Shown here one piece after another: positions 3,341 through 61,479 of a DNA stretch of 64,000 bases. Below the pieces are notes generated by a model. That model ran no database searches. It was given only the letters and a program-made list of their open reading frames with translations, and was not told where the DNA came from. The translations under genes were made by a program, and so were the position numbers. This DNA comes from an uncultured bacterium (GTDB lineage: Bacteria > Hydrogenedentota > CAZGCA01 > CBFDCQ01): assembly GCA_965603355.1 (NCBI GenBank), contig CBFDCQ010000003.1, positions 20,802 to 84,801 on the forward strand. The letters are read 5' to 3'. The first letter of the stretch is position 1. Each line of letters opens with the position of its first letter.

Positions 3341-4360
3341 CTATGCCAGTGAGATCTTTTTCCCGGTCCGTGCAGATTCCTTTTCTGCCTCAACGATCCT
3401 GACCGAGTTCCGCGATTGCTCCAGCGTCGTGACTTCCTTGACCTTTTCGCCACGTATAGCTTTCGCGAAGTGCGCGATTTCGAAGGAATAGCCATCCCCT
3501 TCTTCGATCGCCGGCGCGAACGCGTTGCCAACAGGTGGACAAACCTTGAACGCGGGTACACGTGTGTTGTCGTAAACGAGCGTCGCCTTCTCCATCTCAA
3601 TATTGAAGCTCATCTCAAACCCGAAGGATGGCATCATCTGCCAACTGCCCTCCGCGGTAATCATTCTATCGTCGCCATAAAGATACTGCGTTACGACATG
3701 CGTCAACCCCAAGCCGAGGCTTTTTGCTCCAAAACTCCGCACCGCACGCGGCATCCCGAGAAGGTACTGGACATAATCGGTATCGTGGATGTGCAGGTCA
3801 AGTGCCATGCCGCCGCTACGGCCCTCGTCCGTGAACCAGTTGCTGCGAGACCAGGTCGGGATCGAACCCAGCCGCCGAAACGTTGCCGCGACGACCTTTC
3901 CGTATTCGCCGCTATCGACCATGCCCTTCGCCTTGGCGTATTCCGGCCAGAACCGAATGCAATGGCCGATCAGGAGGATATTTCCGCTGCGTTTGGCAGC
4001 GGCAATCATATCGTCGCACTGAGCCACATTGAGCGCCATCGGCTTCTCACACAGGACGTGCAGGCCGGCCTCGAGCGCCTTTATCGAGAACTCCGCATGC
4101 AGGTCCGTCGGCAGCGTTATTGAAACTGCGTCCAAGTTGCTCTCCGCCAGCATTTCGTCGAAGTCGCTGTACAGACTGAGCTTATTGAACTCAATTCCTG
4201 CGTTGGTACCCTCAATATTGCCGGAGGCCCCGTTTTCCGTCTCCAACCGATCGGGGTCCGTATCGCAGATTGCTGTGACCTCGACTCCATCTGTAGCGCG
4301 CCAGCGGGCATAATGCATCCGCCCCATGAACCCGCATCCAACTAATGCAACTCTGACCAT
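3341..4360 (-). CDS. Gfo/Idh/MocA-family oxidoreductase (no signal peptide)
   Basis: 339-aa ORF with MVRVALVGCGFMGRMH Rossmann N-terminus and LCEKPMA motif. Confidence 0.85.
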   Translation of the reverse strand: MVRVALVGCGFMGRMHYARWRATDGVEVTAICDTDPDRLETENGASGNIEGTNAGIEFNKLSLYSDFDEMLAESNLDAVSITLPTDLHAEFSIKALEAGLHVLCEKPMALNVAQCDDMIAAAKRSGNILLIGHCIRFWPEYAKAKGMVDSGEYGKVVAATFRRLGSIPTWSRSNWFTDEGRSGGMALDLHIHDTDYVQYLLGMPRAVRSFGAKSLGLGLTHVVTQYLYGDDRMITAEGSWQMMPSFGFEMSFNIEMEKATLVYDNTRVPAFKVCPPVGNAFAPAIEEGDGYSFEIAHFAKAIRGEKVKEVTTLEQSRNSVRIVEAEKESARTGKKISLA

Positions 4361-9245: not shown

Positions 9246-9416
9246 GTGCAGTCCCCAATGAGTGCCCCGTCACGAAAGTAGCGTTATTATAGACATGTAG
9301 TTACATCAGAGTCAAGGAGAAAACGTGGGACGTGACGTTGCGGCGAACGCCGGGCGAGTGGTATAGTGAGGATGCGGGCTACGTCATGATGTTTGGCGAA
9401 AAGGAGGGAAGTAGTC

Positions 9417-10553
9417 ATGTCGGCGGCGATAACACGAGGGAGTAAAGGCAGCTCAGGCGGAAAAAAGGCAGCCTTATTAGTCCTGGTTCTCTTGTTAGTA
9501 GCGACTTATCACTTTTTTGCTTATAGAAACCGACAGTCTTCTTTAGAGAAGAGATTATACAAGGGGACTAAGATAGCTTTTGAGTCTGTCAGGGACGAAA
9601 ATCAAGAGATCTATGTTATGTATCCTGATGGCACCGAGTTAAAGAGGTTGACAAATAATCCTGCTGCTGATGGGGCTCCCTGCTGGTCTCCTGATAGAAA
9701 ACGGATAGCCTTCATCTCGTATAGAGATAAGAATTCGGAAATTTACGTTATGAACGCGGATGGGAGCGGGCGGAAGAGGTTAACCAGTAATCGCGTTCAG
9801 GATCACAAGCCTTGCTGGTCTCCTGATGGTAAGAAAATAGCTTTTGTCTCTTACAGAGATAAGAATTGGGAGATCTATGTTATGGGCGCGGATGGTGGTG
9901 AGCCAAAGAACTTGACGGACGATCCCGGTGATGATGGCGGTCCTGTGTGGTCTCCTGACGGTAAGAAGATAGCCTTTGTCTCACGCAGGGATGGAAATGA
10001 TGAAGTTTACGTTATGAATGCTGACGGAAGTGGGCAGAAGAACTTGACTGACAATCTCGATTGGGATTCGAGCCCTTCCTGGTCGCCTGATGGGGAGAGA
10101 ATCGCTTTTGCATCAAATAGAGACGGGAATCATGAGATCTATGTTATGAATGCCGATGGTACTGACCAGAAGAACCTTTCAGATAACTCCGCCATGGATA
10201 TGAACCCTTCATGGTCTCCTGATGGAAAGCGGATAGCTTTTGAGTCAAATAGAGATGGAAGTAAGCATGAGATTTATGTCATGAATGCAGATGGCAGCGA
10301 GCAGAAGAACTTGACAAATGACCCTGCTCAGGACCAGGGGCTTTTGTGGTCCCCCGACGCAAGGAAATTAGTTTTTGTCAGGTCTGTTGGCAATAATTCT
10401 GATATCTACATTATGAATCTCGATGGCAGCGGACAGAAGAAACTGACGAGCAACCCCGCTCATGACGGGGCGCCGTCCTGGTCAGCATTACCGCCTCGTG
10501 AGACTAAAGAGGAAGATAAGAGCAGCCTGGAAGACAGCGAACCCTCCTCCTGA
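9417..10553 (+). CDS. TolB-like periplasmic protein with seven PD40/WD40-like beta-propeller repeats
   Basis: Seven 44-aa repeats of the form EIYVMNADGSxQKNLTxxxxxDxxPSWSPDGKRIAFxSNRDG, with an N-terminal TM/signal segment. I prefer ATG 9417 (AAGGAGG 8 nt upstream) over the TTG at 9393 in the track. GC is markedly lower than in the neighbours. Confidence 0.8.
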   Translation: MSAAITRGSKGSSGGKKAALLVLVLLLVATYHFFAYRNRQSSLEKRLYKGTKIAFESVRDENQEIYVMYPDGTELKRLTNNPAADGAPCWSPDRKRIAFISYRDKNSEIYVMNADGSGRKRLTSNRVQDHKPCWSPDGKKIAFVSYRDKNWEIYVMGADGGEPKNLTDDPGDDGGPVWSPDGKKIAFVSRRDGNDEVYVMNADGSGQKNLTDNLDWDSSPSWSPDGERIAFASNRDGNHEIYVMNADGTDQKNLSDNSAMDMNPSWSPDGKRIAFESNRDGSKHEIYVMNADGSEQKNLTNDPAQDQGLLWSPDARKLVFVRSVGNNSDIYIMNLDGSGQKKLTSNPAHDGAPSWSALPPRETKEEDKSSLEDSEPSS

Positions 10554-10639: not shown

Positions 10640-11038
10640 TCACAGCCCGAGCACTTTGGATACGGTTTTCTTGAGCTGTTCGGGATCGACCGGTTTCTCG
10701 ATGTACGCGTCGGGCTCTTCGCCTATGAAATCGCCCATCTCTTCTGCGGAGAAGCCTATTCCCACCTTATCCGCGACGCCGGTCAGCATGATGACCGGGA
10801 TGCTCTTGGTCGACTCATCCTTCTTCAGGTCCGCAAACACGTCAAACCCGTTCTTCTCCGGCATCTGTACGTCGAGAATGATAAGGTCCGGCGTTGCCTC
10901 CTTCGCTTTTTCGAGTCCGCTCACGCCGTCGTTTGCCGAGATCGGCGCGATATCGCCGACTTCCGATAGAACGGCCTCCACAAACTCGACAGCGTCTTGT
11001 TCATCATCCACGATCAGAACCGTCTTAACGTCAGCCAT
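10640..11038 (-). CDS. single-domain CheY-like response regulator
   Basis: 132 aa with VLIVDDEQD, LIILDVQMPEKNG, VIMLTG and YIEKP motifs. It lies immediately downstream of the GAF histidine kinase. Confidence 0.85.
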   Translation of the reverse strand: MADVKTVLIVDDEQDAVEFVEAVLSEVGDIAPISANDGVSGLEKAKEATPDLIILDVQMPEKNGFDVFADLKKDESTKSIPVIMLTGVADKVGIGFSAEEMGDFIGEEPDAYIEKPVDPEQLKKTVSKVLGL

Positions 11039-11092: not shown

Positions 11093-12307
11093 CTAACCGG
11101 TCTCACCTCTCAAAGGCAAGGTTACGGTAAAGGTGGTTCCCTCGCCGAGCTTGGAATCCACCGCGATCTCGCCGTTGTGTTCCGTTATTATCTTGTGTGT
11201 AACGGGCAGACCGAGTCCGGTTCCCTGCGACCCTTTCGTGCTGAAGAACATCTGGAACAGTTGTTCCTTATCCTCGGCTGCAATGCCGCACCCGTTGTCT
11301 GAAATCTTGATGCAGAACACATCTCCATCCGGTATTTCAGTGCAGACCTCAACGCATCCCTCGTTAGCGTCGTCGCACGCGTCCACGGCATTAGAGACGA
11401 GGTTGAGCAGGCACCTGCGGATGCCTTTCGGGTCGAGCGCGACCTTGTTGAGCCGGGCATTCGGCGTCCAGGTGACGGTCACGCCCTTGTCGGCGGCTTT
11501 CTGCTCCATCAGATCGCATACCGCCTGGATGATCTCGTTGACGTCGGCCACATCGTACTCCGGTTTGCGCTCCTTGGAGTACGTGAGCATATCCAGCACG
11601 AGGTCCTTCATGAACCCGTTGTTCTTCTTGAGTATTTCCCATCCTCTCGAGAGCGTTTTGGAGTCATCCTTACGAAGTCCCAGATCCACCATGTACGCTC
11701 CACCCTGGATGCCGTTGAGCACGTTCTTTATGCAGTGTGCCAACCCCGCGACGGTCTGTCCAACAGCCGCCAGCCGTTCCTTTTCCAATATCTCTTCATG
11801 CAGCACGGCATTTTCGATAGCGATGGCCGCCTGTGCCGCGACGGCCTCGCATAGCGCCAGATCATGTTCGTCGAAATCGGTTCCGTCGAGCTTGTTAATG
11901 ATCTCGATAGCGCCCCACAGCCGATTCTTCGTTGCCATGGGCACACACGCGATCGCTCTTGTACTGAACCCGCTGTCCTCGTCCACTTTGCTGAAGAACC
12001 GATCGTCGCTGGCGACATCGTTGACGATGGCCGGCTTGCCGGACTGGACAACCCATCCGACGATCCCTTCACCCTGTTTCATCCTCATGGGCTTGACCGC
12101 TTCCGCCTTATGACCTCGAGCGACGTGGAAGAGCAGATCGCCGGTCTCATCGTCTATTAGGACCAGGGAGGAAGCCTCGACACTCATGACGTCCGTCGTG
12201 ACGGACATCACGGACTCAAGCACCGTGTCCAGGTCCAGATGCGCATTGACCGTCTTGCTCACTTGGATGAGTGCGTTTAGTTCGCCGGTTTTCAACGAAG
12301 CAGCCAT
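11093..12307 (-). CDS. GAF-domain sensor histidine kinase
   Basis: 404 aa with an N-terminal GAF domain. H-box AGLAHCIKNVLNGI, N-box LLNLVSNAVDA, G-boxes SDNGCGI and GTGLGLPV. Confidence 0.9.
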   Translation of the reverse strand: MAASLKTGELNALIQVSKTVNAHLDLDTVLESVMSVTTDVMSVEASSLVLIDDETGDLLFHVARGHKAEAVKPMRMKQGEGIVGWVVQSGKPAIVNDVASDDRFFSKVDEDSGFSTRAIACVPMATKNRLWGAIEIINKLDGTDFDEHDLALCEAVAAQAAIAIENAVLHEEILEKERLAAVGQTVAGLAHCIKNVLNGIQGGAYMVDLGLRKDDSKTLSRGWEILKKNNGFMKDLVLDMLTYSKERKPEYDVADVNEIIQAVCDLMEQKAADKGVTVTWTPNARLNKVALDPKGIRRCLLNLVSNAVDACDDANEGCVEVCTEIPDGDVFCIKISDNGCGIAAEDKEQLFQMFFSTKGSQGTGLGLPVTHKIITEHNGEIAVDSKLGEGTTFTVTLPLRGETG

Positions 12308-12613
12308 AATGAGTACCTCACGCGCCTTAACGCGTGCATCTGGAATTGTCCCCGGTCACCCGTGCGCAGTAATATAGCACAAAGCACTTCCGCGCGCAAG
12401 GCTGCGAGTTGCGGAGCATGTTGGGTCTATCCTGTCCTGTCTGCGTGAGGGCTTATCTCAATGTGCAGCGGTGGCCTGTCGAGGCGGAGCCTGCTCTTGG
12501 GAGAGCGCGGCGAGATCGTCGTTTACCATCACGACAGCGGTCTCCCCGCTCTTAGCGTAGTAACCCTTTCTGATGGCGACCTGACGGAACTTGAATCTCC
12601 TATAGATGCTGAG
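11835..12613. repeat. segmental duplication, copy A (kinase 5' part + intergenic region + rimI 3' remnant; ybjQ deleted)
   Basis: Aligns to 15567-16676. The offset is 3732 nt for 11835-~12440 (428 nt perfect, then roughly 88% by eye) and 4062 nt for 12468-12613 (rimI-like). Copy A therefore lacks 330 nt present in copy B. Confidence 0.85.
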
Positions 12614-13807
12614 GGTCTTCTTTGCTTCATCGTTGACTAACGATTCCATTGAGATCACTTTGAAGTACATTATCTCATCACTATCACCCCCATCGCCGAT
12701 GCCGGCCTCGTAGAAGCAGCCGAGATTGCCATCGGGCAGAACCGCAATAGACGAATAACCGGCGGGGCCTGCATGGACTTGTTGTGCGATTGGCCATGTC
12801 TTGCCGTCATCCTTGCTGACTTGAACGGTCAGGTTAAAGCGATCCGTCTGGGTGGCAGGATTTGAAAATATCAGCAGGTTATTGTCATCGGGATTATGAC
12901 TTATCAGGCTTGCCTGGCACACTGGTTCGATAAGCGTCTGGTCATGTTCTATCGGTGACCAGGTAGCTCCACCATCGCTACTGAAAGAAAGTGCACGACA
13001 TTTCTTGCCGTTATAGCTTCGCATATTCATCATCAGTCTCGAGTCGCTCAATTCTACGACGGTGCTTTCGTTACAGCCGGGCGTCATGGATTCGCTGAGT
13101 TTCCAGCTCTTGCCGTGATCGTCACTGTAAATCACGTGGGCTCCATAGCCATGCTTGCCGAACATGCGAAAGACGTCATCGCGTGTTTCGGTGTAGCTGT
13201 GGTTGGCGGGAATTACGAGCCTTCCTTTGTATCGGCCGTTTAGAATTTGAATCCCGTTGCCGGGACCGGTCGCATACCATCGCCAGTCATCTTTGCGGGC
13301 CGTTTCGGAGAGATCGACAGGAGTTGACCATGTCTTGCCGTCGTCATCGGAGCAGCAAACATAAGGCCTTCGGACATCCTTGCTTTCTCCGCGGACTATA
13401 TCGGGTCCATGATCGCCGCCAAAATTCCATGTTGCTAGAAGCCAGATGCGCCCTGTATCCTGATCGACAACAGGACAGGGATTGCCGCAGGTATTTCGGC
13501 CGTCGGACCATACCACCAATCGTTCGCCCCAGGTCTTTCCAGAATCTTCGGACCTGCGTACCAGCAGATCAATATCACCTGTGTCGCGGTCCTCCCGGCC
13601 TTCACAGAAGGCTAGCACGGTCCCTTTCTTGGTGACTATCAACGAGGGAATGCGGCAGTTGTTATATCCGTATTTGTCCTGCTCAAAGAGCACTAGCTTG
13701 TCTGGACGTTTGTCACTAAAGGCGCTCTTGCCTTCGGCAGTCCTAAAGTCGTCTCCAAACGCGAGCAAGGTTGGTATGAGATACATAATGCAAAACATAT
13801 ATTTCAT
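12458..13807 (-). CDS. secreted exo-alpha-sialidase (GH33, BNR/Asp-box) with a C-terminal tail derived from a rimI fragment
   Basis: RIP motif (NNCRIPSL) and five Asp boxes (SEDSGKTW, SDDDGKTW, SDDHGKSW, SSDGGATW, SKDDGKTW). Signal-like N-terminus MKYMFCIMYLIPTLLAFG (start moved to 13807). The last ~40 aa, LSIYRRFKFRQVAIRKGYYAKSGETAVVMVNDDLAALSQE, match the RimI C-terminus encoded at 16553-16676. Confidence 0.8.
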   Translation of the reverse strand: MKYMFCIMYLIPTLLAFGDDFRTAEGKSAFSDKRPDKLVLFEQDKYGYNNCRIPSLIVTKKGTVLAFCEGREDRDTGDIDLLVRRSEDSGKTWGERLVVWSDGRNTCGNPCPVVDQDTGRIWLLATWNFGGDHGPDIVRGESKDVRRPYVCCSDDDGKTWSTPVDLSETARKDDWRWYATGPGNGIQILNGRYKGRLVIPANHSYTETRDDVFRMFGKHGYGAHVIYSDDHGKSWKLSESMTPGCNESTVVELSDSRLMMNMRSYNGKKCRALSFSSDGGATWSPIEHDQTLIEPVCQASLISHNPDDNNLLIFSNPATQTDRFNLTVQVSKDDGKTWPIAQQVHAGPAGYSSIAVLPDGNLGCFYEAGIGDGGDSDEIMYFKVISMESLVNDEAKKTLSIYRRFKFRQVAIRKGYYAKSGETAVVMVNDDLAALSQEQAPPRQATAAH

Positions 13808-15566
13808 TGTAATACCTCTCTTTTGCCACCAAAGAGGGCCATGTACCTTAGATGCCATAGATCATTGCCACAAGCATGGTTAAGGAGGGCACTCGACCGA
13901 TTTAGTGAACCACAAGCTTTATCATGAATACAATTCTCCAGGCGCCTTCCTACTGAATCTGAAACGCATAGAGTTTTGCGTTTCGCAAGCGAAAGCGAAT
14001 TTGCACCACCTTGCCCACTAGAGATGACAAGTCTCTGCCATTCTTCCAGACCGGTGTGAGTCGCAAGCTGTCCACCGCCCTGTACTCCGGTGCCTCTTTA
14101 CCGGAAAAGCCCGGGACCATCTCCCCATGTTCATCAAGTATTTCAGTCTGTATAATACCAGCACTTGCTTGCACATTGACTTCCAGACGATTCCCCTCGA
14201 TCCTGAATCGTTTCGTGAGGACCGTTCCTGGCGTGTCTTTCGCCTCCAAACAGATGAAACCGTCCAGTCTCAGTTTTGCCAGTCCGATATTCAAGTGCCG
14301 GCCGCGGCTGTAGTGACGTTCGTCCATGCCGGCATAGTAGATCCAGTGTTCGTCGTTATGCGTAATGATTTGGGAAGGCGGTTTGATGCCGTCTTTATCA
14401 AAACTTCCAGCGGGACCACGCGGGACAAGGGGTTTGCGCGCGTGTATCCAGCTCTTGTCAAAGTTGACGCCGTCGCGGCTGGTCCCGATATAGAAGTCCA
14501 TAAAGTCTTCTTCGTGGCGAGTGTGATAGTCGTAGCCGTCAAACAACCCTGAACGATCCATGGTGTACACATCCATAAGCGCGAAGTAGACCCCCTCGTA
14601 TATCCAATTGGTCATCCCGTTAAATTGCAGGCGGGGACTGCCCCAGCGATTCTTTTCCTTCCTGGGATCGTCCGCGCAGATTTTGTCGGCTACCGTCTTC
14701 CACGCTGTCGGATGGTTCTGCAAGTCGTTGCCCGCCGTGTGGACCATTATGCGCACTGAACGGATCTCACTGGTCCCACCTATGCCACCCAGGTCTGTGC
14801 GGGTTAACAAACGGTAGGTTTTGGTGATCGGGTCCCACAGGAGCTGGTTATGCGTGTCGGCAGCCCGATAGGACACAGCTTTTCCGTCGTTGTAGTAATT
14901 CCAGTGGATACCGTCAGCCGAATAGGAGATACCAACCTTACAGCCTTCTTCCTTAACGTCGCCTGCACCCTTGTATTTCTCAGAATGTCCCCAGGGCAGG
15001 CTGGGATCAAGGTTGCAACTGAACCCCATGTCACTGAGGACAATGTTGCTCTTGCCGTCTTTTCCCACCATCGGTTTGGTCCAATGGATGCCATCTTTCG
15101 ACTCGGCATAGCCGACGCCGATGCGGCCCGCGTACCACATCTGGAACTTATCGTCCTTATTGTTACGCACCACGCTTGTGTAGTAGCCGAAAGCCAGGGC
15201 CACCGGCGAGCCAGCAGGTTTTTTAAAGTCAGGATGGAAATCAGACTCGAGAGAAGGCTCACATACAACCCCAACCTTCTTAACCACACCCATCTCACGG
15301 GTAATGTTCTGTTTCTCGGCGATGACGTAGTCATCCACGAGCAACTGCTTCTGGGTTCCCACGGCAACGAAATCGTCGGCAGCCATCGCCGGCACAAAGC
15401 ATCCGGCGACAACCGTTAGAATAGCGAGAAATGTGATTAGAAAACGTGGACAAAGGTACATGGTTAAATCCTCGCATCTGTTTCTAGCCGACAATTCCTA
15501 TATAGATCTGCTCTGGCCAATGCCGAGCAAGTTCTCGTCCATTATTGAGAGAACCGCGGCCGCTTC
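12614..15566. other. low-GC two-gene glycan-degradation cassette located at the duplication junction
   Basis: Bounded by the end of rimI-like homology (~12613) and the start of kinase homology (15567). Hand-counted 60-nt lines give about 40-52% GC versus about 57-65% in flanking core genes. Confidence 0.6.
13950..15461 (-). CDS. putative secreted glycoside hydrolase (beta-propeller GH32/43/130-like fold plus C-terminal beta-sandwich); family not resolved
   Basis: Signal/lipobox MYLCPRFLITFLAILTVVAGC. Motifs WYAGR..GYAESKDGIHWTKP, YSADGIHWNYY and GTSRDGVNFDK resemble propeller hydrolases. The C-terminal LRLDGF...VQIRFRLRNAKLYAFQ resembles their beta-sandwich. Start taken at ATG 15461. Confidence 0.5.
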   Translation of the reverse strand: MYLCPRFLITFLAILTVVAGCFVPAMAADDFVAVGTQKQLLVDDYVIAEKQNITREMGVVKKVGVVCEPSLESDFHPDFKKPAGSPVALAFGYYTSVVRNNKDDKFQMWYAGRIGVGYAESKDGIHWTKPMVGKDGKSNIVLSDMGFSCNLDPSLPWGHSEKYKGAGDVKEEGCKVGISYSADGIHWNYYNDGKAVSYRAADTHNQLLWDPITKTYRLLTRTDLGGIGGTSEIRSVRIMVHTAGNDLQNHPTAWKTVADKICADDPRKEKNRWGSPRLQFNGMTNWIYEGVYFALMDVYTMDRSGLFDGYDYHTRHEEDFMDFYIGTSRDGVNFDKSWIHARKPLVPRGPAGSFDKDGIKPPSQIITHNDEHWIYYAGMDERHYSRGRHLNIGLAKLRLDGFICLEAKDTPGTVLTKRFRIEGNRLEVNVQASAGIIQTEILDEHGEMVPGFSGKEAPEYRAVDSLRLTPVWKNGRDLSSLVGKVVQIRFRLRNAKLYAFQIQ

Positions 15567-16039
15567 GCCGCGACGGCCTCGCATAGCGCCAGATCATGTT
15601 CGTCGAAATCGGTTCCGTCGAGCTTGTTAATGATCTCGATAGCGCCCCACAGCCGATTCTTCGTTGCCATGGGCACACACGCGATCGCTCTTGTACTGAA
15701 CCCGCTGTCCTCGTCCACTTTGCTGAAGAACCGATCGTCGCTGGCGACATCGTTGACGATGGCCGGCTTGCCGGACTGGACAACCCATCCGACGATCCCT
15801 TCACCCTGTTTCATCCTCATGGGCTTGACCGCTTCCGCCTTATGACCTCGAGCGACGTGGAAGAGCAGATCGCCGGTCTCATCGTCTATTAGGACCAGGG
15901 AGGAAGCCTCGACACTCATGACGTCCGTCGTGACGGACATCACGGACTCAAGCACCGTGTCCAGGTCCAGATGCGCATTGACCGTCTTGCTCACCTGTAT
16001 GAGAGCGTTTAGTTCGCCGGTTTTCAACGAAGCAGGCAT
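15542..16039 (-). pseudogene. truncated duplicate of the GAF histidine-kinase 5' end (GAF domain only, 165 aa ORF)
   Basis: Protein matches kinase residues ~1-157 apart from one substitution at residue 2 (P for A), then diverges (..CEAVAAKRPRFSQ*). The DNA is 100% identical to 11835-12262 over 428 nt. No HisKA or ATPase part is present. Confidence 0.8.
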
Positions 16040-16676
16040 AATGTATACCTCACGCGCCGTAACGCGTGCATCTGGAATTGCCCCCGGTCACCCGTTCCGA
16101 GTAATATAGCACAAAGCAAGTCTGCGCGCAAGGCTGCGGGTTGCGGGGCATGTGGGGCCTATGCTAGCCTATGTATGTAAGATCGTATCGCAATGTCCGG
16201 CGGAGAGGAGGTAAATGGCTATGCTAGTTGTTACGACACCGACTATTGAGGGGAAGAAGATTGAGACTTATCTGGGGATAGTAACCGGCGAGGCGATTCT
16301 CGGCGCGAATATATTCAAGGACTTCTTCGCTGGTGTACGCAACATCGTTGGCGGTAGGTCCGCTGCATACGAGAAGGAGTTGCGCAAGGCCAAGGATATC
16401 GCTATCCAGGAAATGGTCGAGCAGGCGGAAGGGCTCGGCGGCAACGCTGTGATAGGCGTTGACCTCGATTACGAGACGATCGGCATAGGTCAGGGCGGCA
16501 ATATGCTCTTGGTGAGCGCTTCGGGTACGGCGGTGGTCTGTCGAGGCTGAGCCTACTCTCTCGAGAGCGCGCCGAGGTCGTCGTTCACCATCACAGTAGC
16601 GTTCTCGCCGGTGTGAGCGTAGTAACCCTTGCGTGTCGCGACATGCCGGAATCCGAATTTCCTATACATACTGAGC
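15567..16676. repeat. segmental duplication, copy B (kinase 5' fragment + intergenic region + intact ybjQ + rimI 3' part)
   Basis: See copy A. Copy B carries the intact ybjQ and continues into the functional rimI. Confidence 0.85.
16215..16550 (+). CDS. YbjQ/UPF0145-family protein
   Basis: 111 aa. Pattern [52 protein letters not shown]...[11 protein letters not shown] is characteristic of the family. GGAGAGGAGG lies upstream. Confidence 0.85.
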
Positions 16677-17035
16677 GCGGCAAAATTGTTTTCTCTTACC
16701 TCAAGAGTTGCCATTGTGACCTTTCTGGATACCGCGGCGTCCAGCAGGTGTTGCAGGATCATCGAGCCGTATCCTTGCCGGCGGTAGAGTGGATGGACCG
16801 CTATGTTTGTGATATGGACCTCATCCGCGATCAGCCAGAACCCACCGTACCCGATCAGCTCAGGACCCAGCCGGAACACCATGAAATACGAGCTCGGCTG
16901 GTCCATCTCCTTGAGGAAAAGGAACTGCGACCAGGGTTCGGGAAAGGAGACAGTCTCTATGGCGAGAACCTCCGGGAGATTCTTCCGCGAAAGAGGTTCG
17001 CAACTTATCTCAGTGGTGGTCACTCTGTGTAACAC
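16553..17035 (-). CDS. rimI: ribosomal-protein-alanine N-acetyltransferase (GNAT)
   Basis: 160 aa with GNAT core ITNIAVHPLYRRQGYGSMILQHLL and tail LSMYRKFGFRHVATRKGYY. It sits in a tsaB-containing operon, the usual rimI context. Confidence 0.8.
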   Translation of the reverse strand: MLHRVTTTEISCEPLSRKNLPEVLAIETVSFPEPWSQFLFLKEMDQPSSYFMVFRLGPELIGYGGFWLIADEVHITNIAVHPLYRRQGYGSMILQHLLDAAVSRKVTMATLEVRENNFAALSMYRKFGFRHVATRKGYYAHTGENATVMVNDDLGALSRE

Positions 17036-17913
17036 TCCTGTTCCACGAGTTCGCGATAGGCTCTGTGCAACTCCAGCGTAACCTTGCCGGGCGTTCCGTC
17101 GCCGATACTCTCGTTTTCCACCGCAACGACGGGCATGATCTCGGCTGTCGAGTTGGTGATGAACACCTCGTCGGCCTGAAACATATCTTCAGGCCGTAAC
17201 ATCGCCTCTGCAGTCTTGATTCCGAGTTCCGGCGCCATCTCGAGCACGGTTGCTCTCGTAATGCCGGGCAGGACGCCGCATTCGAGGGACGGTGTCAGAA
17301 GCTCGTTTCCTCGGACCGTGAACAGGTTTGTCGTGCTGCCTTCCGTCAGGAAACCGTCCGCGTTCAGCATGACCGCCTCGAACGCTCCCGCATCTTCCGC
17401 CTCGGCCCTTGCGAGTACGCTGTTGAGGTAATTGGCGGACTTGGCTGCCGGGTCGACTGCATCCGGGCTGTTCCTCCGTGTCGCCGCGATGACGATCTTT
17501 ACGCCATCACGGTACAGCTCCTCCGGATGGCCATCGAACGGTCTCGCCCAGAATAGTGTCGTCGGGCGCTGCTCGTAGTTCAGAGTGAACCGGCGCGGCC
17601 CGACTCCTCGGCTAACCGTAACGCGCGCGACGGCTTCCGTCAACCCGTTAGCCGAAATGACCCGTTCGAGCCGGTCGATGTACTCCTTTTCCGTGAAAGA
17701 AATATCGAGCCGTATGAGCGATGCGGATTGGCGCAGCCTGTCCCAGTGTGCCTGGCTGCGGAACGCACTGCCGTTGTACACCCGGAGCGTCTCGAACACG
17801 CCGTCACCGTACAGGAATCCCCTGTCGAAGATCGAAATCCGCGCTTGCTCTTCGGGAACGAGCTCGCCGTTCAGATCGATCTTGAGCGGCATCGTGTGCT
17901 CAGACCGTGTCAC
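17020..17913 (-). CDS. pabC: class IV aminotransferase-fold protein, probably aminodeoxychorismate lyase
   Basis: 297 aa with FLYGDGVFETLRVYNG, NYLNSVLA and LPGITR motifs of fold-type IV PLP enzymes. Adjacent to the pabB-like gene. Confidence 0.7.
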   Translation of the reverse strand: MTRSEHTMPLKIDLNGELVPEEQARISIFDRGFLYGDGVFETLRVYNGSAFRSQAHWDRLRQSASLIRLDISFTEKEYIDRLERVISANGLTEAVARVTVSRGVGPRRFTLNYEQRPTTLFWARPFDGHPEELYRDGVKIVIAATRRNSPDAVDPAAKSANYLNSVLARAEAEDAGAFEAVMLNADGFLTEGSTTNLFTVRGNELLTPSLECGVLPGITRATVLEMAPELGIKTAEAMLRPEDMFQADEVFITNSTAEIMPVVAVENESIGDGTPGKVTLELHRAYRELVEQECYTE

Positions 17914-18078: not shown

Positions 18079-19569
18079 CTACCCGGACCTGGCTCTCAGG
18101 GCTTCGACAAGCGCGCGCGCTTTGTGCCAGGTCTCCAGATATTCCTCTTCCGGGTTGGAATCCGCCACGACACCTCCGCCAACCTGTATGAAAGCGTGCC
18201 CTTTGGCTATCACGAACGTCCTGATGATAATGTTGAGGTCGGTGTCACCGGAAAAACTTATCCATCCTGCCGAGCCGGTGTACGGTCCGCGGCGGACCGT
18301 CTCCAGCTCGTCTATGATCTCCATGCACCTGACCTTCGGCACGCCGGTAATGCTTGCGCCGGGGAACGCCGCCTTCAGCAGATCGATCGCGTCGCGGTCA
18401 TCGCGCATCTTGCCGACGACGTTCGACACGATATGAATCACGTGACTGTACTTCTCGGTGACCTTAAGCTCGTCCGGCAGGACGGTACCGTACTCGCATA
18501 CCCTGCCGATATCGTTGCGCGACATATCGACGATCATAATATGTTCAGCGGTCTCCTTTTGGCTGAGCAAGAGTTCCTCGGTCATTGCGATATCGCCTTC
18601 CGGGCTCGTGCCTCGCGGCCGGGTACCAGCAATCGGCCGGGTATCGACGCATCTACCGGTGAGCTTAATCAACCTTTCCGGTGAACAGCTGACGAGCTGG
18701 AACTCGCCTAAATCGAGGTAGAATGCGAAGGGTGACGGGTTGATTCTTCTCAAAGCCCTGTACAGTGCGAGCGTATCGCCGTGGAATTCCGCGTGGATTC
18801 GCTGCGAGAGGTTTGCCTGGAAGATATCACCCGCGGCGATGTACTCCTTGGTTGCTCCGACCATCTCGGCGTACGATTTGACGTCGTGCGTGCTGCCGAG
18901 GGTGCCGAACTCGTAGGTTGACTCGAGCGGCGCACGTCGGCCCTTGTCAATCTCGATGGTGCGTTTCAGGGACTCCAGCTTGGCGCGTGCTTTCTCGTAC
19001 GCGACGTCGGGGTCGGTCTCTCCGGGGGCGGTGGCACACACCTTTATGCTGTCGTCCGAGCGGTCAAGAAGGACGACCGAGTCAACGAAAAGCATGCATA
19101 TTTCCGGCAGGTCGAGGTCGTCATCTACCGTGTCCGGCAACGATTCGATAAGGTTCTTCACGTCGTACGAGAAGAAGCCGACAGCGCCTGCGCTGAAATC
19201 GGGCAGGTAATCGACTCTGGGCGCACGGTAGCGGTGCAGGATCTCTCGCAGGGCGTCGAGCGGGTTACCGTCAACCGTCTCGGTCCCTCCGCTGCAGCGG
19301 AATTCCGAGCGGAAGCCTTTACTGGTGAATATCCCGAACGGGTTGCCGCCGAGTATGCAGTAGCGTGCCACCTTGAGCGGGCCGTCGGCGCTGTCGAGAA
19401 GGAACGGGTGCTCAACGCGCCTGCGCAGGCGCTCGAAAAGCGCTACGGGATCGAACGGGACGTTCACCGCATCGCAGTATACGGGCGGTGCGGCGCCATG
19501 TTGGTCAAACAGGTTGCGAAAGGTCTTTCTGTCCGGCGCCACCTTCGTGGTGATCAGTCCCACACTCAT
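18079..19569 (-). CDS. pabB: aminodeoxychorismate/anthranilate synthase component I
   Basis: Chorismate-binding family motifs (IAAGDIFQANLSQR, GTRPRG, PGASITGVPKVRCMEIIDELE, RGPYTGSAGW). Start set at ATG 19569, which makes an ATGA overlap with the tsaB stop. The pabB-versus-trpE assignment rests on the adjacent lyase-like gene. Confidence 0.75.
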   Translation of the reverse strand: MSVGLITTKVAPDRKTFRNLFDQHGAAPPVYCDAVNVPFDPVALFERLRRRVEHPFLLDSADGPLKVARYCILGGNPFGIFTSKGFRSEFRCSGGTETVDGNPLDALREILHRYRAPRVDYLPDFSAGAVGFFSYDVKNLIESLPDTVDDDLDLPEICMLFVDSVVLLDRSDDSIKVCATAPGETDPDVAYEKARAKLESLKRTIEIDKGRRAPLESTYEFGTLGSTHDVKSYAEMVGATKEYIAAGDIFQANLSQRIHAEFHGDTLALYRALRRINPSPFAFYLDLGEFQLVSCSPERLIKLTGRCVDTRPIAGTRPRGTSPEGDIAMTEELLLSQKETAEHIMIVDMSRNDIGRVCEYGTVLPDELKVTEKYSHVIHIVSNVVGKMRDDRDAIDLLKAAFPGASITGVPKVRCMEIIDELETVRRGPYTGSAGWISFSGDTDLNIIIRTFVIAKGHAFIQVGGGVVADSNPEEEYLETWHKARALVEALRARSG

Positions 19570-20261
19570 TTCTTCTTGCTCTTGCCCCACTTTCGTTCCG
19601 CTTCAGATTTGCGGAGGTATATCGGCTCCAGCGTATCAATATCGTCCGACTCGCCTTTGTCAAGGCGCGACTTCGCGATCGCGGCGACGTTCACGGCTCT
19701 TGGTATCCACAACCGCTGCGGGGCGAATACGGCCCGTTCCCCGAGCGTTGCCACGATCCTGTCGCGGTAGAGAGGTATGCCGTCTCCAAGAATCACGACC
19801 GCCTCATCAGTTTTGCCAAATAGCTCTTCGACGGGGGCCACCATGTCCTCGGAGAGCTTCTCGCACAGTCCGTCATTGAACCTGTAGAATGCGGCGTACA
19901 CTTCGTCCATTCGCGCGTCGAGTATCGGACAGATCATATGCCGCGAGAACGCGACCGAGGCGGCGAGCGCATCGAGCGTCGGCACGGCGACGAGCCTTTT
20001 GTCCGCCGCGAGCGCAAGACCCTTGAACGTTGCCAGTCCTATACGCAGTCCGGTGAAGGAGCCGGGACCTATAGCTACGGCGAGAGCGTCAACGTCGGCG
20101 ATCTCCATCCCGCAGTCCGTCAGAACGCGGTCAATCGTCGGCATGAGTCGCGCGGAATGGGTCTCCGACACGTTGAGGGTGTACTCCGCGACGGGAGTCT
20201 CGTCCTCGACGAGTGCGACACCGCCTGTCTTCGTGGATGTATCAGCTGCGAGTATTATCAT
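19566..20261 (-). CDS. tsaB: tRNA t6A37 biosynthesis protein TsaB
   Basis: MIILAADTSTKTGGVAL N-terminus and IAIGPGSFTGLRIGLATFKGLA motif. Start moved to ATG 20261. Confidence 0.85.
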   Translation of the reverse strand: MIILAADTSTKTGGVALVEDETPVAEYTLNVSETHSARLMPTIDRVLTDCGMEIADVDALAVAIGPGSFTGLRIGLATFKGLALAADKRLVAVPTLDALAASVAFSRHMICPILDARMDEVYAAFYRFNDGLCEKLSEDMVAPVEELFGKTDEAVVILGDGIPLYRDRIVATLGERAVFAPQRLWIPRAVNVAAIAKSRLDKGESDDIDTLEPIYLRKSEAERKWGKSKKK

Positions 20262-58651: not shown

Positions 58652-59239
58652 GTGAGCGAGGAGAGGTACTTCGTTCATCCATCGTCGCACGTCGACAGTG
58701 GCGCTTCGATCGGCGACGACACGCACGTGTGGCACTTCTGTCACGTGATGTCGGGCGCCAGGATCGGCCGCAACTGCGAGATCGGACAGAACGTATTCGT
58801 GGACCGGAACGTTGTCATAGGGGATAACGTCAAGATCCAGAATAACGTTTCTCTGTACGAAGGGGTGACGCTGGAGGACAGCGTTTTCGTCGCGACATCG
58901 ACCGTGTTCACAAACGAGTTGTCACCGCGCGCCGCGTTTCCTCGTCACAGAGAGGGCGGTTTCCAAAAGACGCTGGTGAAACGTGGCGCCACAATCGGCG
59001 CTAACGCGACAGTATTGTGCGGGACAACCGTCGGCGTGTACGCGTTCATAGGCGCCGGCGCCGTCCTTACACGCGACGCACCCGATCATGGTCTGATGAT
59101 GGGTGTGCCGGCGCGCGTCTCAGGGTGGGCGTGCGCGTGCGGCAGAAAGATTGTGTTCAACGAGCTGAATAAGGCGCGATGCGGCGCTTGCCGCAGAGAC
59201 TACGCCCGCGTCGCGGGCGAGGTCCGGGAGAAGAAGTAG
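58652..59239 (+). CDS. left-handed beta-helix (hexapeptide) sugar N-acetyltransferase, WbpD/WlbB-like
   Basis: 195 aa. FVHPSSHVDSGASIGDDTHVWHFCHVMSGARIG hexapeptide repeats and a Cys-rich C-terminus. GTG start with AAGGAG upstream. Confidence 0.8.
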   Translation: MSEERYFVHPSSHVDSGASIGDDTHVWHFCHVMSGARIGRNCEIGQNVFVDRNVVIGDNVKIQNNVSLYEGVTLEDSVFVATSTVFTNELSPRAAFPRHREGGFQKTLVKRGATIGANATVLCGTTVGVYAFIGAGAVLTRDAPDHGLMMGVPARVSGWACACGRKIVFNELNKARCGACRRDYARVAGEVREKK

Positions 59240-59301
59240 CCTTTCACCAGCCCGCTGCCTGACCTGGAGGGGCACGGGTAGACAGAAATGTCTGCCCCAC
59301 C
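59216..59301 (+). repeat. direct repeat, left copy (last 24 nt of the acetyltransferase CDS + 37 nt + REP hairpin)
   Basis: 51 nt are identical to 60739-60789, followed by a diverged REP hairpin (GGGTAGACAGAAATGTCTGCCCCACC, 59276-59301). Confidence 0.85.
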
Positions 59302-60694: not shown

Positions 60695-60738
60695 CAGATA
60701 TTATCATCTTAGTGCGTGATGATCCAACTTGCGTGGCC

Positions 60739-60824
60739 GGCGAGGTCCGGGAGAAGAAGTAGCCTTTCACCAGCCCGCTGCCTGACCTGAAGCGGCACGG
60801 GCAGACAGGAATGTCCACCCCACT
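60739..60824 (+). repeat. direct repeat, right copy (relic acetyltransferase 3' end + degenerate REP)
   Basis: Retains codons for AGEVREKK-stop plus downstream sequence. The REP is degraded (GGGCAGACAGGAATGTCCACCCCAC). Confidence 0.85.
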
Positions 60825-60972: not shown

Positions 60973-61479
60973 TTACTTGCGCTGGCCGCCCCCGCCGAGG
61001 CCTTTTGCCTGTGGTCGTGCCTGCTTGCCTTTGCCGCCCCCGCCGAGGCCTTTTGCCTGTGGTCGCGCCTGCTTGCCTTTGCCGCCGCCTTTCGCCGGTG
61101 CTCCCAGTTGCTTGCCCTTACCGCGACCGGGTTGTTGTCTCGCGAGCTGTTTGGGCGGGAATTTCTTCATGTAGCGCGTATGGTTGCGCCAGGGTCTGTT
61201 GTTGCCAGGCCTTATGACCACGTGTCTGTGTCCGGAGGTCAATCTAGCAGGACGCCTGTTGACGACAACCCACTGGCCGCCCCGGAAAACAGTGTATGTG
61301 CCGAGATCGCGGCACCAGTAGATCTCGACGTCCGGGTAGTAGTGGTAAACGTGTTGCACGCGGCGGCCGCGAGCCCGCGCGTGCGGTGGCGGACCCGGCC
61401 GGGGGTAGTGGTGATGTACCGTCTCGCATCCCGTAAGAACCGCGATAAGCAGCACTGAAATCAGGTATCTCATTGTCAT
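60973..61479 (-). CDS. hypothetical lipoprotein with His/Tyr/Pro-rich core and Gly/Lys-rich repeat tail
   Basis: MTMRYLISVLLIAVLTGC lipobox. The C-terminus has GGGKGKQARPQAKGLG x2 plus a degenerate copy. Confidence 0.5.
   Translation of the reverse strand: MTMRYLISVLLIAVLTGCETVHHHYPRPGPPPHARARGRRVQHVYHYYPDVEIYWCRDLGTYTVFRGGQWVVVNRRPARLTSGHRHVVIRPGNNRPWRNHTRYMKKFPPKQLARQQPGRGKGKQLGAPAKGGGKGKQARPQAKGLGGGGKGKQARPQAKGLGGGGQRK
60985..61128. repeat. 48-bp tandem repeat (2 near-perfect copies + 1 degenerate) inside the lipoprotein gene
   Basis: GCCGCCCCCGCCGAGGCCTTTTGCCTGTGGTCGyGCCTGCTTGCCTTT occurs at 60985 and 61033. The third unit is diverged. Confidence 0.8.

Follow-up and report, generated by a model that had tools for sequence, protein, structure and literature searches.

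How a foreign pair of genes can come to lie exactly between two copies of a host segment, with no mobile element beside it, is the question raised by a locus of an uncultured bacterium of the Hydrogenedentota (GenBank assembly GCA_965603355.1, contig CBFDCQ010000003.1, positions 20,802 to 84,801). This stretch of 64,000 nucleotides (nt), termed here the window, carries two direct copies of a segment comprising the 5' part of a histidine kinase gene, its upstream intergenic DNA and the 3' end of rimI. Between the copies lies a cassette of two genes, encoding a sialidase-like protein and a protein of 503 amino acids (aa). An earlier reading of the sequence, referred to below as the original prediction, had proposed a tandem duplication with foreign DNA captured at the new joint. 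The cassette is probably a stably inherited foreign insertion that arose by microhomology-guided illegitimate recombination, without a mobile element, and was followed by spread between lineages and by decay of a gene fragment.

Duplicated host segments and the inserted DNA

All coordinates are positions of the window, whose sequence lineage is designated W, and the region was compared with itself by BLASTN. The long block of similarity (11825-12430 versus 15558-16162; 606 nt, 96.5% identity, E=0) showed an offset of 3732, and the short block (12468-12613 versus 16530-16675; 147 nt, 80.3%, E=4e-27) an offset of 4062. The true end of the long block is at 11835/15567, as the final 9-10 nt of the BLAST match represent chance similarity of GC-rich sequence. 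In the same self-comparison, no other repeats of comparable size were found in the 64-kb window. The end of copy B is at kinase nt 473 (15567), and copy A, in the same orientation, begins 146 nt before the rimI stop codon (12613). The direct host copies are separated by the insert alone, and the flanking duplication currently amounts to ∼0.75 kb. Copy A forms part of the full-length kinase gene and copy B part of the full-length rimI, an arrangement that had been proposed earlier and is borne out by the gene coordinates and family matches (Table 1).

The segment between the copies (12614-15566) comprises 2,953 nt, occupied by two open reading frames (ORFs), a 142-nt spacer and ∼100 nt upstream, and it is flanked by partial host genes. 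Its GC content is 51.8%, versus 57.5% for the whole window, and the GC content at third codon positions is 57-63% in the cassette genes versus 69-75% in neighbouring genes. Self-BLASTN, GC content and gene content thus confirmed the repeats, both offsets and the lower-GC insert of 2953 nt of the original prediction. Its proposed topology is supported by the ends of the copies and their shared orientation.

Independent assemblies of the layout

The layout was supported by assembled contigs from several sources, namely SPAdes and MEGAHIT assemblies from ENA, a JGI metagenome and Logan. A 165-aa protein consisting of the duplicated kinase GAF domain (the GAF-only ORF) was found in identical form on at least 15 contigs, and a further five carry the 503-aa protein. 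An exact-protein look-up of the sialidase ORF in its 466-aa form gave no match, the gene callers starting it later (449 aa). The order on all of those contigs was rimI, ybjQ, the GAF fragment, the 503-aa gene, the sialidase, the full kinase and the regulator. They were 99.9% identical to the window, with one (100%) probably representing the same contig. In total, the layout was observed in three sequence lineages, W, Z (loci L015 and L016) and V (L064), and the left joint of the cassette, J1, was common to all of them.

The two copies are perfectly identical over 428 nt (12262-11835; 15567-15994), a length beyond any k-mer, in the window and in the SPAdes contigs. In the MEGAHIT contig L004, assembled with k = 141, the longest exact run between the copies is 107 nt; since this is shorter than k, L004 represents an unambiguous assembly path. 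Five sites, all third codon positions, co-vary in both copies among the SPAdes contigs and do so in differing combinations (12167/15899, 12158/15890, 12101/15833, 12029/15761 and 11921/15653). L004 and the JGI contig L019 each retain two distinct haplotypes. The perfect identity in the window is therefore probably the product of a repeat collapsed to an assembler consensus, in which case the true identity between the copies would be about 95.6%. Recent gene conversion was considered as the cause of the identical block and set aside, because the variants are paired across the copies, a pattern for which assembly collapse is preferred. As a practical warning, apparent perfect repeat identity in the window is most likely assembler consensus. 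The original prediction had named a mis-assembled contig as one way in which it could fail; the layout was instead assembled independently many times, and once without a shared repeat longer than k.

The left joint

The best preserved evidence of the capture lies at J1, where the foreign DNA meets rimI. The closest donor-like sequence (L023) is 86% identical in nucleotide sequence up to 12606, and homology to rimI begins at 12613, which places the crossover within an 8-nt microhomology (overlap CTCAG(C/T)AT). With the joint marked by a stroke, the donor-like sequence reads AAGACCCTCAGCAT/TAAATGG, rimI reads ...CTCAGTATG/TATAGGAAATTC, and the window reads AAGACCCTCAGCAT/CTATAGGAGATTC. The joint cuts a two-domain sialidase-Kelch/NanM gene in the linker between its domains and joins it to the last 40 codons of rimI, the fusion being in frame (...KKTLSI/YRRFKF...). 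From these alignments, J1 is taken to be the original joint, still preserved.

The rimI-derived tail of the sialidase ORF remains recognizable at residues 397-427, which match profile positions 102-132 of TIGR01575 with 23 bits. In the W remnant, the TAG stop codon of rimI has become CAG, so that the ORF extends for 11 further codons. The remnant of lineage Z keeps its stop codon, giving a product of 431 aa. Since the length of the tail differs between W and Z, it is probably dispensable.

The right joint and the decay of the kinase fragment

The original prediction had treated the right breakpoint at 15567 (J2) as a joint of the capture itself. This was not borne out by lineage Z, in which the fragment consists of kinase nt 1-27, then nt 525-770, then ∼70 nt that are absent from the window, joining the shared sequence at 15574. 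Across J2, the window reads GTCGCGGC/ACAGG in copy A and GTCGCGGC/GAAGC in copy B, and the corresponding region of Z reads GTTGCGGC/GAAGG. As Z retains nt 525-770 and the additional ∼70 nt, J2 of lineage W is a later deletion joint and not the original one. By this comparison, the deletion is judged to have occurred at GCGGC and to have removed kinase nt 474-770 together with ∼55 nt of cassette-side DNA. Independently, lineage Z has lost kinase nt 28-524 at a microhomology of 3-4 nt, and the GAF-only ORF is accordingly not conserved there. Since the Z fragment reaches nt 770, the ancestral duplication extended from 146 nt before the rimI stop to kinase nt 770 or beyond, i.e., ∼1.1 kb without ybjQ or ∼1.45 kb with it. 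The extra ∼70 nt of Z contain no element-like sequence and gave no match among the other fetched sequences.

An overlapping SacII/NotI site (CCGCGGCCGC, 15556-15563) lies beside the right joint. The possibility of an engineered construct was rejected, as NotI sites occur five times in the 64 kb and the homologous sequence of Z lacks this one.

ybjQ and the allelic origin of copy A

Relatives that lack the cassette were found in two forms. In L009 and L010 (kinase 85% identical at the aa level), the order is a TsaD-family (TsaB-like) gene, PabB, aminotransferase, rimI, kinase and regulator, with neither ybjQ nor cassette. In L011-L013 (kinase 78%), the order is the same, with ybjQ between rimI and the kinase and again no cassette. 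The latter is the cassette-free order (kinase-ybjQ-rimI) that had been anticipated in the original prediction. The occurrence of cassette-free relatives in both ybjQ-bearing and ybjQ-less forms identifies the cassette as an insertion. A duplication without the cassette, which would have argued for an older and unrelated event, was not seen among the relatives examined. Another locus, L099, is 96.7% identical to the window over the kinase, the regulator and the next gene, and it has no ybjQ and a rimI tail of the functional type, 93.6% identical to that of the resident gene. Overall, ybjQ is polymorphic, being present in L011-L013 and L015 and absent from L009, L010, L099 and L100. In L100, which also lacks ybjQ, the intergenic region differs.

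Alignments A1 and A3 place the absence of a 330-nt ybjQ segment from copy A at 12462/12463, which accounts for the shift in offset from 3732 to 4062. The end points of this gap are identical to those of the cassette-free L009, L010 and L099. The ybjQ segment of copy B is bounded by CCGCCGGAC (16195-16203) and CCGCCGTAC (16525-16533), which form a 9-nt direct repeat, CCGCCG(T/G)AC. Copy A as a straight copy of copy B was thus not upheld: its ybjQ-less end points are those of the relatives, and its rimI remnant differs by ∼20% from every functional rimI. This comparison favours different allelic origins for the two copies, copy A not being a plain paralogue of copy B, with recurrent deletion and decay as the alternative explanation of a ybjQ-less copy whose remnant is ∼20% from the resident rimI.

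Beyond these close relatives, the best kinase match among GTDB species representatives was 63% (Ca. Latescibacterota), the best named kinase matches, to this group, being 62-66%. The best PabB matches were 57-59% (unnamed metagenome-assembled genomes, Ca. Abyssobacteria and Ca. Poribacteria), the two named groups giving 57-58%. The J1 pattern and a close relative were both absent from these representative genomes, among which the lineage seems to have no member.

Divergence between lineages W and Z

In terms of synonymous divergence (dS) between W and Z, the cassette and its flanks differ markedly. In the flanks, dS was 0.31 for pabB, 0.37 for the class IV aminotransferase gene, 0.38 for rimI and 0.23 for ybjQ, and in the cassette it was 0.07 for the 503-aa gene and 0.12 for the foreign part of the sialidase. 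The values for tsaB were discarded, since an indel breaks the alignment frame. Similarly, nucleotide identity is ∼90% in the flanks, 94-99% in the cassette, and again ∼90% beyond 12575. The low cassette dS relative to the flanks suggests that the module moved between the lineages by homologous recombination after the flanks had diverged. A simple one-step history, as first envisaged, was not supported, as the cassette was shared between lineages long after flank divergence.

The two gene fragments carry different substitution patterns. The Z kinase fragment differs from the W kinase at 6, 4 and 23 first, second and third codon positions, respectively. This third-position bias indicates that the Z fragment belonged to a functional gene for most of its divergence, its truncation being recent. 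The rimI remnants of W and Z are 93.8% identical, with changes spread evenly over the codon positions. Compared with every functional rimI (resident, L009 and L099), the remnant is ∼80% identical with an excess of third-position changes, and it shares the residues K, Q and I with the rimI of L009. Taken together, the dS values, the ybjQ-less end points and the remnant fit capture in a ybjQ-less lineage and subsequent passage into ybjQ-bearing lineages. Vertical descent alone, combined with repeated loss of ybjQ and with gene conversion, would be less parsimonious.

The cassette genes and their closest relatives

The sialidase ORF comprises a signal-peptide-like N-terminus, a complete BNR_2 domain, ∼10 linker residues derived from the lost Kelch/NanM half, and ∼50 residues from the rimI remnant. 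The match to BNR_2, the six-bladed propeller domain of exo-alpha-sialidases (family GH33), scores 146.9 bits versus a cut-off of 31.4 and spans profile positions 1-276 of 277, and the domain is complete by comparison with single-domain homologues, which stop 8-10 residues before the window breakpoint. For the predicted sialidase, the NCBIfam neuraminidase equivalog scored 64 bits versus a cut-off of 900. The closest outside homologues (77-85% aa, 86% nt) have two domains in 786-822 aa, BNR_2 being followed by a Kelch/NanM-type propeller; among them is the 822-aa protein of L023 (L023:2070-4538; BNR_2 plus Kelch/NANM). The closest relatives (L023 and L096-L098) are all fusions with such a propeller, which resembles sialic acid mutarotase, and lie beside sulfatase genes.

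The original prediction had designated the second cassette gene a hydrolase. Support for this came from the predicted fold, and none came from sequence matching, as the 503-aa protein gave no match in Pfam, NCBIfam or the PDB even at E = 10 or E = 1. Its AlphaFold2 model (predicted local distance difference test score 89, predicted template-modelling score 0.88) consists of a five-bladed beta-propeller and a C-terminal beta-sandwich. Foldseek matched this model to glycoside hydrolase (GH) families GH43, GH32 and GH130 and to a GalNAc deacetylase (E 1e-10 to 1e-7, template-modelling scores 0.35-0.6), with a Foldseek probability of 1.00 for the GH43, GH32 and GH130 structures. The protein is therefore predicted to be glycosidase-like at the level of the fold. 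The family contains more than 1,000 homologues and has no Pfam or NCBIfam model, and its closest named members belong to the Planctomycetota. Some homologues are fused to BNR_2, DUF1080 or GDSL domains, and a neighbouring homologue shows only a "faint" Glyco_hydro_43_rel match. Invariant columns include D152, D183, E289, D355, E371 and H372. On the modelled fold, the family is a candidate for an undescribed glycoside hydrolase family. In one 866-aa protein (P0273), the family is fused to BNR_2, which suggests a functional link between the two cassette genes.

The best outside homologues of the cassette proteins are 72-85% identical, and the named ones belong to Planctomycetota/Phycisphaerae and adjoin sulfatases. 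The foreign nature of the cassette, as originally predicted, is borne out by its composition, its absence from relatives and these closest homologues. Since donor-like contigs place both cassette families beside sulfatases, the cassette appears to be a fragment of a locus for the degradation of sulfated or sialylated glycans. Judged by its closest relatives, it would have come from a distant phylum, from sulfatase/sialidase loci of the Planctomycetota type.

Absence of mobile-element features

No transposase, integrase or recombinase was detected, all ORFs of at least 60 aa in 9-20 kb being assigned to other families (Pfam, NCBIfam). The same databases revealed no replication or transfer function in the cassette. 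Neither terminal inverted repeats pairing the cassette ends nor a short target-site duplication was found. The only tRNA gene in the window is located at 36.5 kb, 20 kb away, and Rfam gave nothing credible in 10.5-17.5 kb. The original prediction that insertion sequences, integrases and inverted repeats are lacking at the cassette ends thus holds, and can be extended to a tRNA site nearby.

Features of the locus

The features of the locus are collected in Table 1. Copy B of the short block (16530-16675) corresponds to the last 123 nt of rimI and 23 nt beyond. Kinase orthologues in the relatives show 72-99% aa identity.

Table 1. Coordinates of genes, repeat copies and joints in the window.
Feature	Position	Strand	Description
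Response regulator	10640-11038	-	Pfam Response_reg 9e-20; downstream of complete kinase, operon partner; same neighbour in all relatives
Complete histidine kinase, 404 aa	11093-12307	-	Pfam GAF 3e-21, HATPase_c 5e-27; first 473 nt in copy A
Copy A, long block	11835-12440		Kinase nt 1-473 and ∼133 nt of upstream intergenic DNA; 96.5% to 15567-16172
Chimeric sialidase-like ORF, 449 aa	12458-13807	-	Pfam BNR_2 1e-42
rimI 3' remnant	12468-12613	-	Last 40 codons and last ybjQ codons (other strand); C-terminal tail of sialidase ORF
Joint J1	12606-12613	-	8-nt microhomology CTCAGCAT, 7/8 with rimI CTCAGTAT; sialidase-Kelch to rimI
Foreign cassette	12614-15566		Composition, absence from relatives L009-L013, closest homologues
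503-aa ORF without family match	13950-15461	-	Secreted; predicted five-bladed beta-propeller and beta-sandwich
GAF-only ORF, 165 aa	15542-16039	-	Pfam GAF 3e-18; kinase codons 1-158 and 7 junction codons
Joint J2	15567-15571	-	5-nt microhomology GCGGC; kinase nt 473 meets cassette-side DNA; three-way comparison
Copy B, long block	15567-16172		BLASTN and list of differing sites
ybjQ	16215-16550	+	Pfam YbjQ_1 3e-39; copy B only
Complete rimI	16553-17035	-	TIGR01575 126.7 bits versus cut-off 86.4
Class IV aminotransferase	17020-17913	-	
PabB-like enzyme	18079-19590	-	

Some further features of the window were observed. A gene for a PD40/WD40-like beta-propeller (9393-10553) has a GC content of 45-48%, markedly below its surroundings, occupies the same place in relatives, and contains diverged internal repeats of ∼132 nt (∼71% identity). 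A short repeat pair (59208-59300 versus 60731-60823; 93 nt, 91% identity) lies ∼1.5 kb apart, and a tandem pair with a 48-nt period is found at 60976-61038 versus 61024-61086. Both of these short repeats flank or overlap ORFs of 184-268 aa.

Proposed history and alternative explanations

The joints suggest a history of three steps. In the initial step, a relative without ybjQ (order rimI-intergenic-kinase) would have received a glycan-degradation fragment from a distant phylum, joined at two points: one end would have met rimI 146 nt before its stop, and the other the kinase at or beyond nt 770. The joints are crossed, in that the upstream end of the foreign DNA is attached to the downstream host point and vice versa, which leaves the host segment on both sides and requires two copies of the host region. 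Most likely, the incoming DNA would have bridged a pair of sister chromosomes, or a comparable unequal exchange would have taken place. The module, which runs from the kinase fragment through the cassette, the rimI remnant and the intergenic DNA to the kinase, would then have recombined into ybjQ-bearing lineages diverged by ∼10%, anchored in the repeats, i.e., in the kinase fragment on one side and in the kinase and regulator on the other. Such a transfer would leave copy B with ybjQ, copy A without it, and a cassette less diverged than its flanks. Finally, the redundant kinase fragment would have decayed independently through microhomology deletions, lineage W losing nt 474-770 and ∼55 nt, and lineage Z losing nt 28-524. 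Owing to the duplication, the insertion cost nothing, as rimI and the kinase-regulator pair both remained intact.

The position of the cassette also bears on its expression. A gap of 80 nt separates it from the preceding GAF-only ORF, whose start is that of the duplicated kinase, and in a generic scan no terminator-like site was detected between the two. In front of this ORF is the second copy of the kinase upstream region. Upstream of the kinase, a conserved TTGTGCTATATTAC motif resembling an extended -10 element is located at 12369-12382 (minus strand) in copy A and at 16101-16114 in the second copy, and it is invariant across W, L009, L099 and L064 (alignments A1 and A3). On this arrangement, the captured kinase promoter could plausibly drive transcription of the cassette.

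A number of points weigh against this history in one part or another. The support for the layout comes from assembled contigs. The original kinase-side joint is uncertain, as the nt-770 end of Z could itself be secondary, and the Z contigs were recovered without kinase copy A. The 9-nt direct repeat could have given rise to identical ybjQ end points more than once. The codon-position counts of the remnant rest on small numbers, and its distance of ∼20% from all sampled functional rimI genes, those of ybjQ-less loci included, implies either an unsampled source lineage or long decay. A donor contig carrying the 503-aa gene followed by sialidase-Kelch was not found among the fetched loci, and no contig among them matched the ∼190-nt region upstream of the 503-aa gene. 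As to promoter capture, which we infer from the arrangement, a generic scan for sigma-70 promoters and terminators gave counts no higher than those in shuffled sequences.

The alternative closest to the original prediction is a single tandem duplication in the direct ancestor, which captured the foreign DNA and was inherited vertically thereafter, with ybjQ deletion, remnant decay and gene conversion accounting for the differences between the copies. The topology fits such a course, recurrent ybjQ deletion could be promoted by the 9-nt repeat, the even spread of substitutions among the remnants is that of neutral decay, and the kinase block is far more similar between the copies than the remnant, as conversion would produce. 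Against this, the perfect identity of the kinase block is probably assembly consensus, three relatives without the cassette have the very same ybjQ end points, the remnant has rimI residues in common with L009 and not with the resident gene, the cassette dS is 3-5 times below that of the flanks, and the Z kinase fragment bears the third-position bias of a recently functional gene; single-step capture is accordingly considered unlikely, though still deserving some weight. Integration of the Campbell type would involve a circle with the cassette and one copy of rimI-3'/intergenic/kinase-5', entering by a single crossover at the kinase upstream region or 5' end; such a circle could arise by excision between repeats in a cell that already carried the module. 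A single crossover yields precisely a ybjQ-less donor copy on one side and a ybjQ-bearing resident copy on the other, with ∼600 nt the direct repeats suffice for RecA-dependent excision and re-integration, and movement of the module between lineages is evident from the dS pattern. This model nevertheless leaves the first capture unexplained, because the circle must already hold the microhomology joints, and its outcome in sequence is indistinguishable from that of a double crossover with linear DNA; with no circular-junction contig among the fetched loci and no replication or transfer function in the cassette, it is regarded as improbable.

The remaining alternatives question either the layout or the absence of an element. 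An assembly artefact, in which two strains with and without ybjQ, or a chromosome and a small circle, were threaded through the shared repeat, would draw on the identical block of 428 nt that the window and the SPAdes contigs contain, which exceeds every k-mer, and on the five variable sites that are always equal in both copies and reveal collapse of the repeat by the assembler. This explanation is already largely refuted, and it is held to be very improbable: contig L004 crosses both copies without a shared run above 107 nt, the JGI and Logan contigs give the identical order, the Z cassette lies behind a differently deleted kinase fragment and thus reaches the same joints through a different graph, and the unique joints J1 and J2 link non-homologous sequences, which a graph error could not create. 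Delivery by an insertion sequence, transposon or integrative island that has since lost its recombinase has nothing positive in its favour, the only case for it being that its traces may have been lost through decay. The two ORFs, the spacer and the short upstream region take up all 2,953 nt; terminal inverted repeats, a short target duplication and a nearby tRNA are all missing; the insert ends on one side within a foreign coding sequence that was severed at a rimI microhomology, unlike the ends of elements; and the extra 70 nt of Z show nothing element-like. Such a decayed element is the least credible of the explanations, with next to no weight attached to it.

Under microhomology-guided capture with later homologous spread, the cassette might be regarded more broadly as a recombinase-free, homology-borne mobile module. 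Its repeats would allow clean excision, which would leave the locus intact again, and entry into any relative with a rimI-kinase junction, where the duplication would form anew, and thereby a gene-specific sweep across lineages diverged by ∼10%. This proposal is offered only tentatively; if it were true, the GAF-only ORF and the rimI-tailed sialidase would represent raw material for new genes.

Relation to known processes and significance

In E. coli, microhomology-mediated deletion and tandem amplification have been described as frequent routes by which transferred genes gain a host promoter (Li & Bock 2019, PMC6614815; Zhang et al. 2024, PMC11111574). As in those studies, the joints of the present locus occur at microhomologies of 5-9 nt, with no recombinase or repeat element, the foreign gene is placed (as inferred here) behind a host promoter, and later deletions also use microhomology. 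Unlike those laboratory selections, performed in E. coli and B. subtilis with an integrated marker, the foreign DNA lies here at a duplication joint in a wild population. In contrast to the amplification cases, the duplicated unit is single-copy, and promoter capture is here a prediction.

In pneumococcus, transforming DNA that bridges two sister chromosomes gives rise to tandem duplication by interchromatid integration, resulting in merodiploidy (Johnston et al. 2013, PMC3784515). In both cases the novel joint carries the incoming sequence and both target copies are retained, but the pneumococcal process depends on homologous pairing (IS861 repeats) and duplicates 100-900 kb, compared with microhomology joints and a duplication of ∼1.1-1.5 kb here.

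Homology-facilitated illegitimate recombination is known from Acinetobacter, Pseudomonas stutzeri and S. pneumoniae (summarised in PMC3240628). The present locus resembles it in having a microhomology joint (J1) and no mobile element, and in the ability of homologous flanks to bring foreign DNA from one relative to another. Classically, recipient DNA beside a single homologous anchor is replaced, whereas here host DNA was duplicated and no homologous anchor could be assigned to the first event; both original joints appear illegitimate, and homology seems relevant only to the later spread. Campbell-type (insertion-duplication) integration likewise places an insert between direct repeats and permits its reversible loss by recombination between them. 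Unlike that type of integration, no plasmid or circular form is evident here, and the first capture is unaccounted for by that route.

The locus is therefore a well-resolved natural instance of known processes, and not a new kind of system. It combines illegitimate recombination, truncation at a domain boundary that left an in-frame fusion, homologous spread and, probably, the capture of a promoter. Bacterial gene gains on record are mostly attributed to mobile elements or homologous replacement, and it is uncommon, above all in uncultured lineages, for both joints of a natural illegitimate insertion to be readable base by base. The locus preserves the cutting of a donor gene at a domain boundary, its in-frame fusion to a host gene, and a duplication that spared both interrupted genes; it further records independent decay of the fragment in two lineages and evidence of transfer of the module by homologous recombination. 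It is of moderate relevance for students of gene gain in uncultured bacteria, as a natural match to the predictions of laboratory screens in which transferred genes are activated by microhomology and promoter capture.

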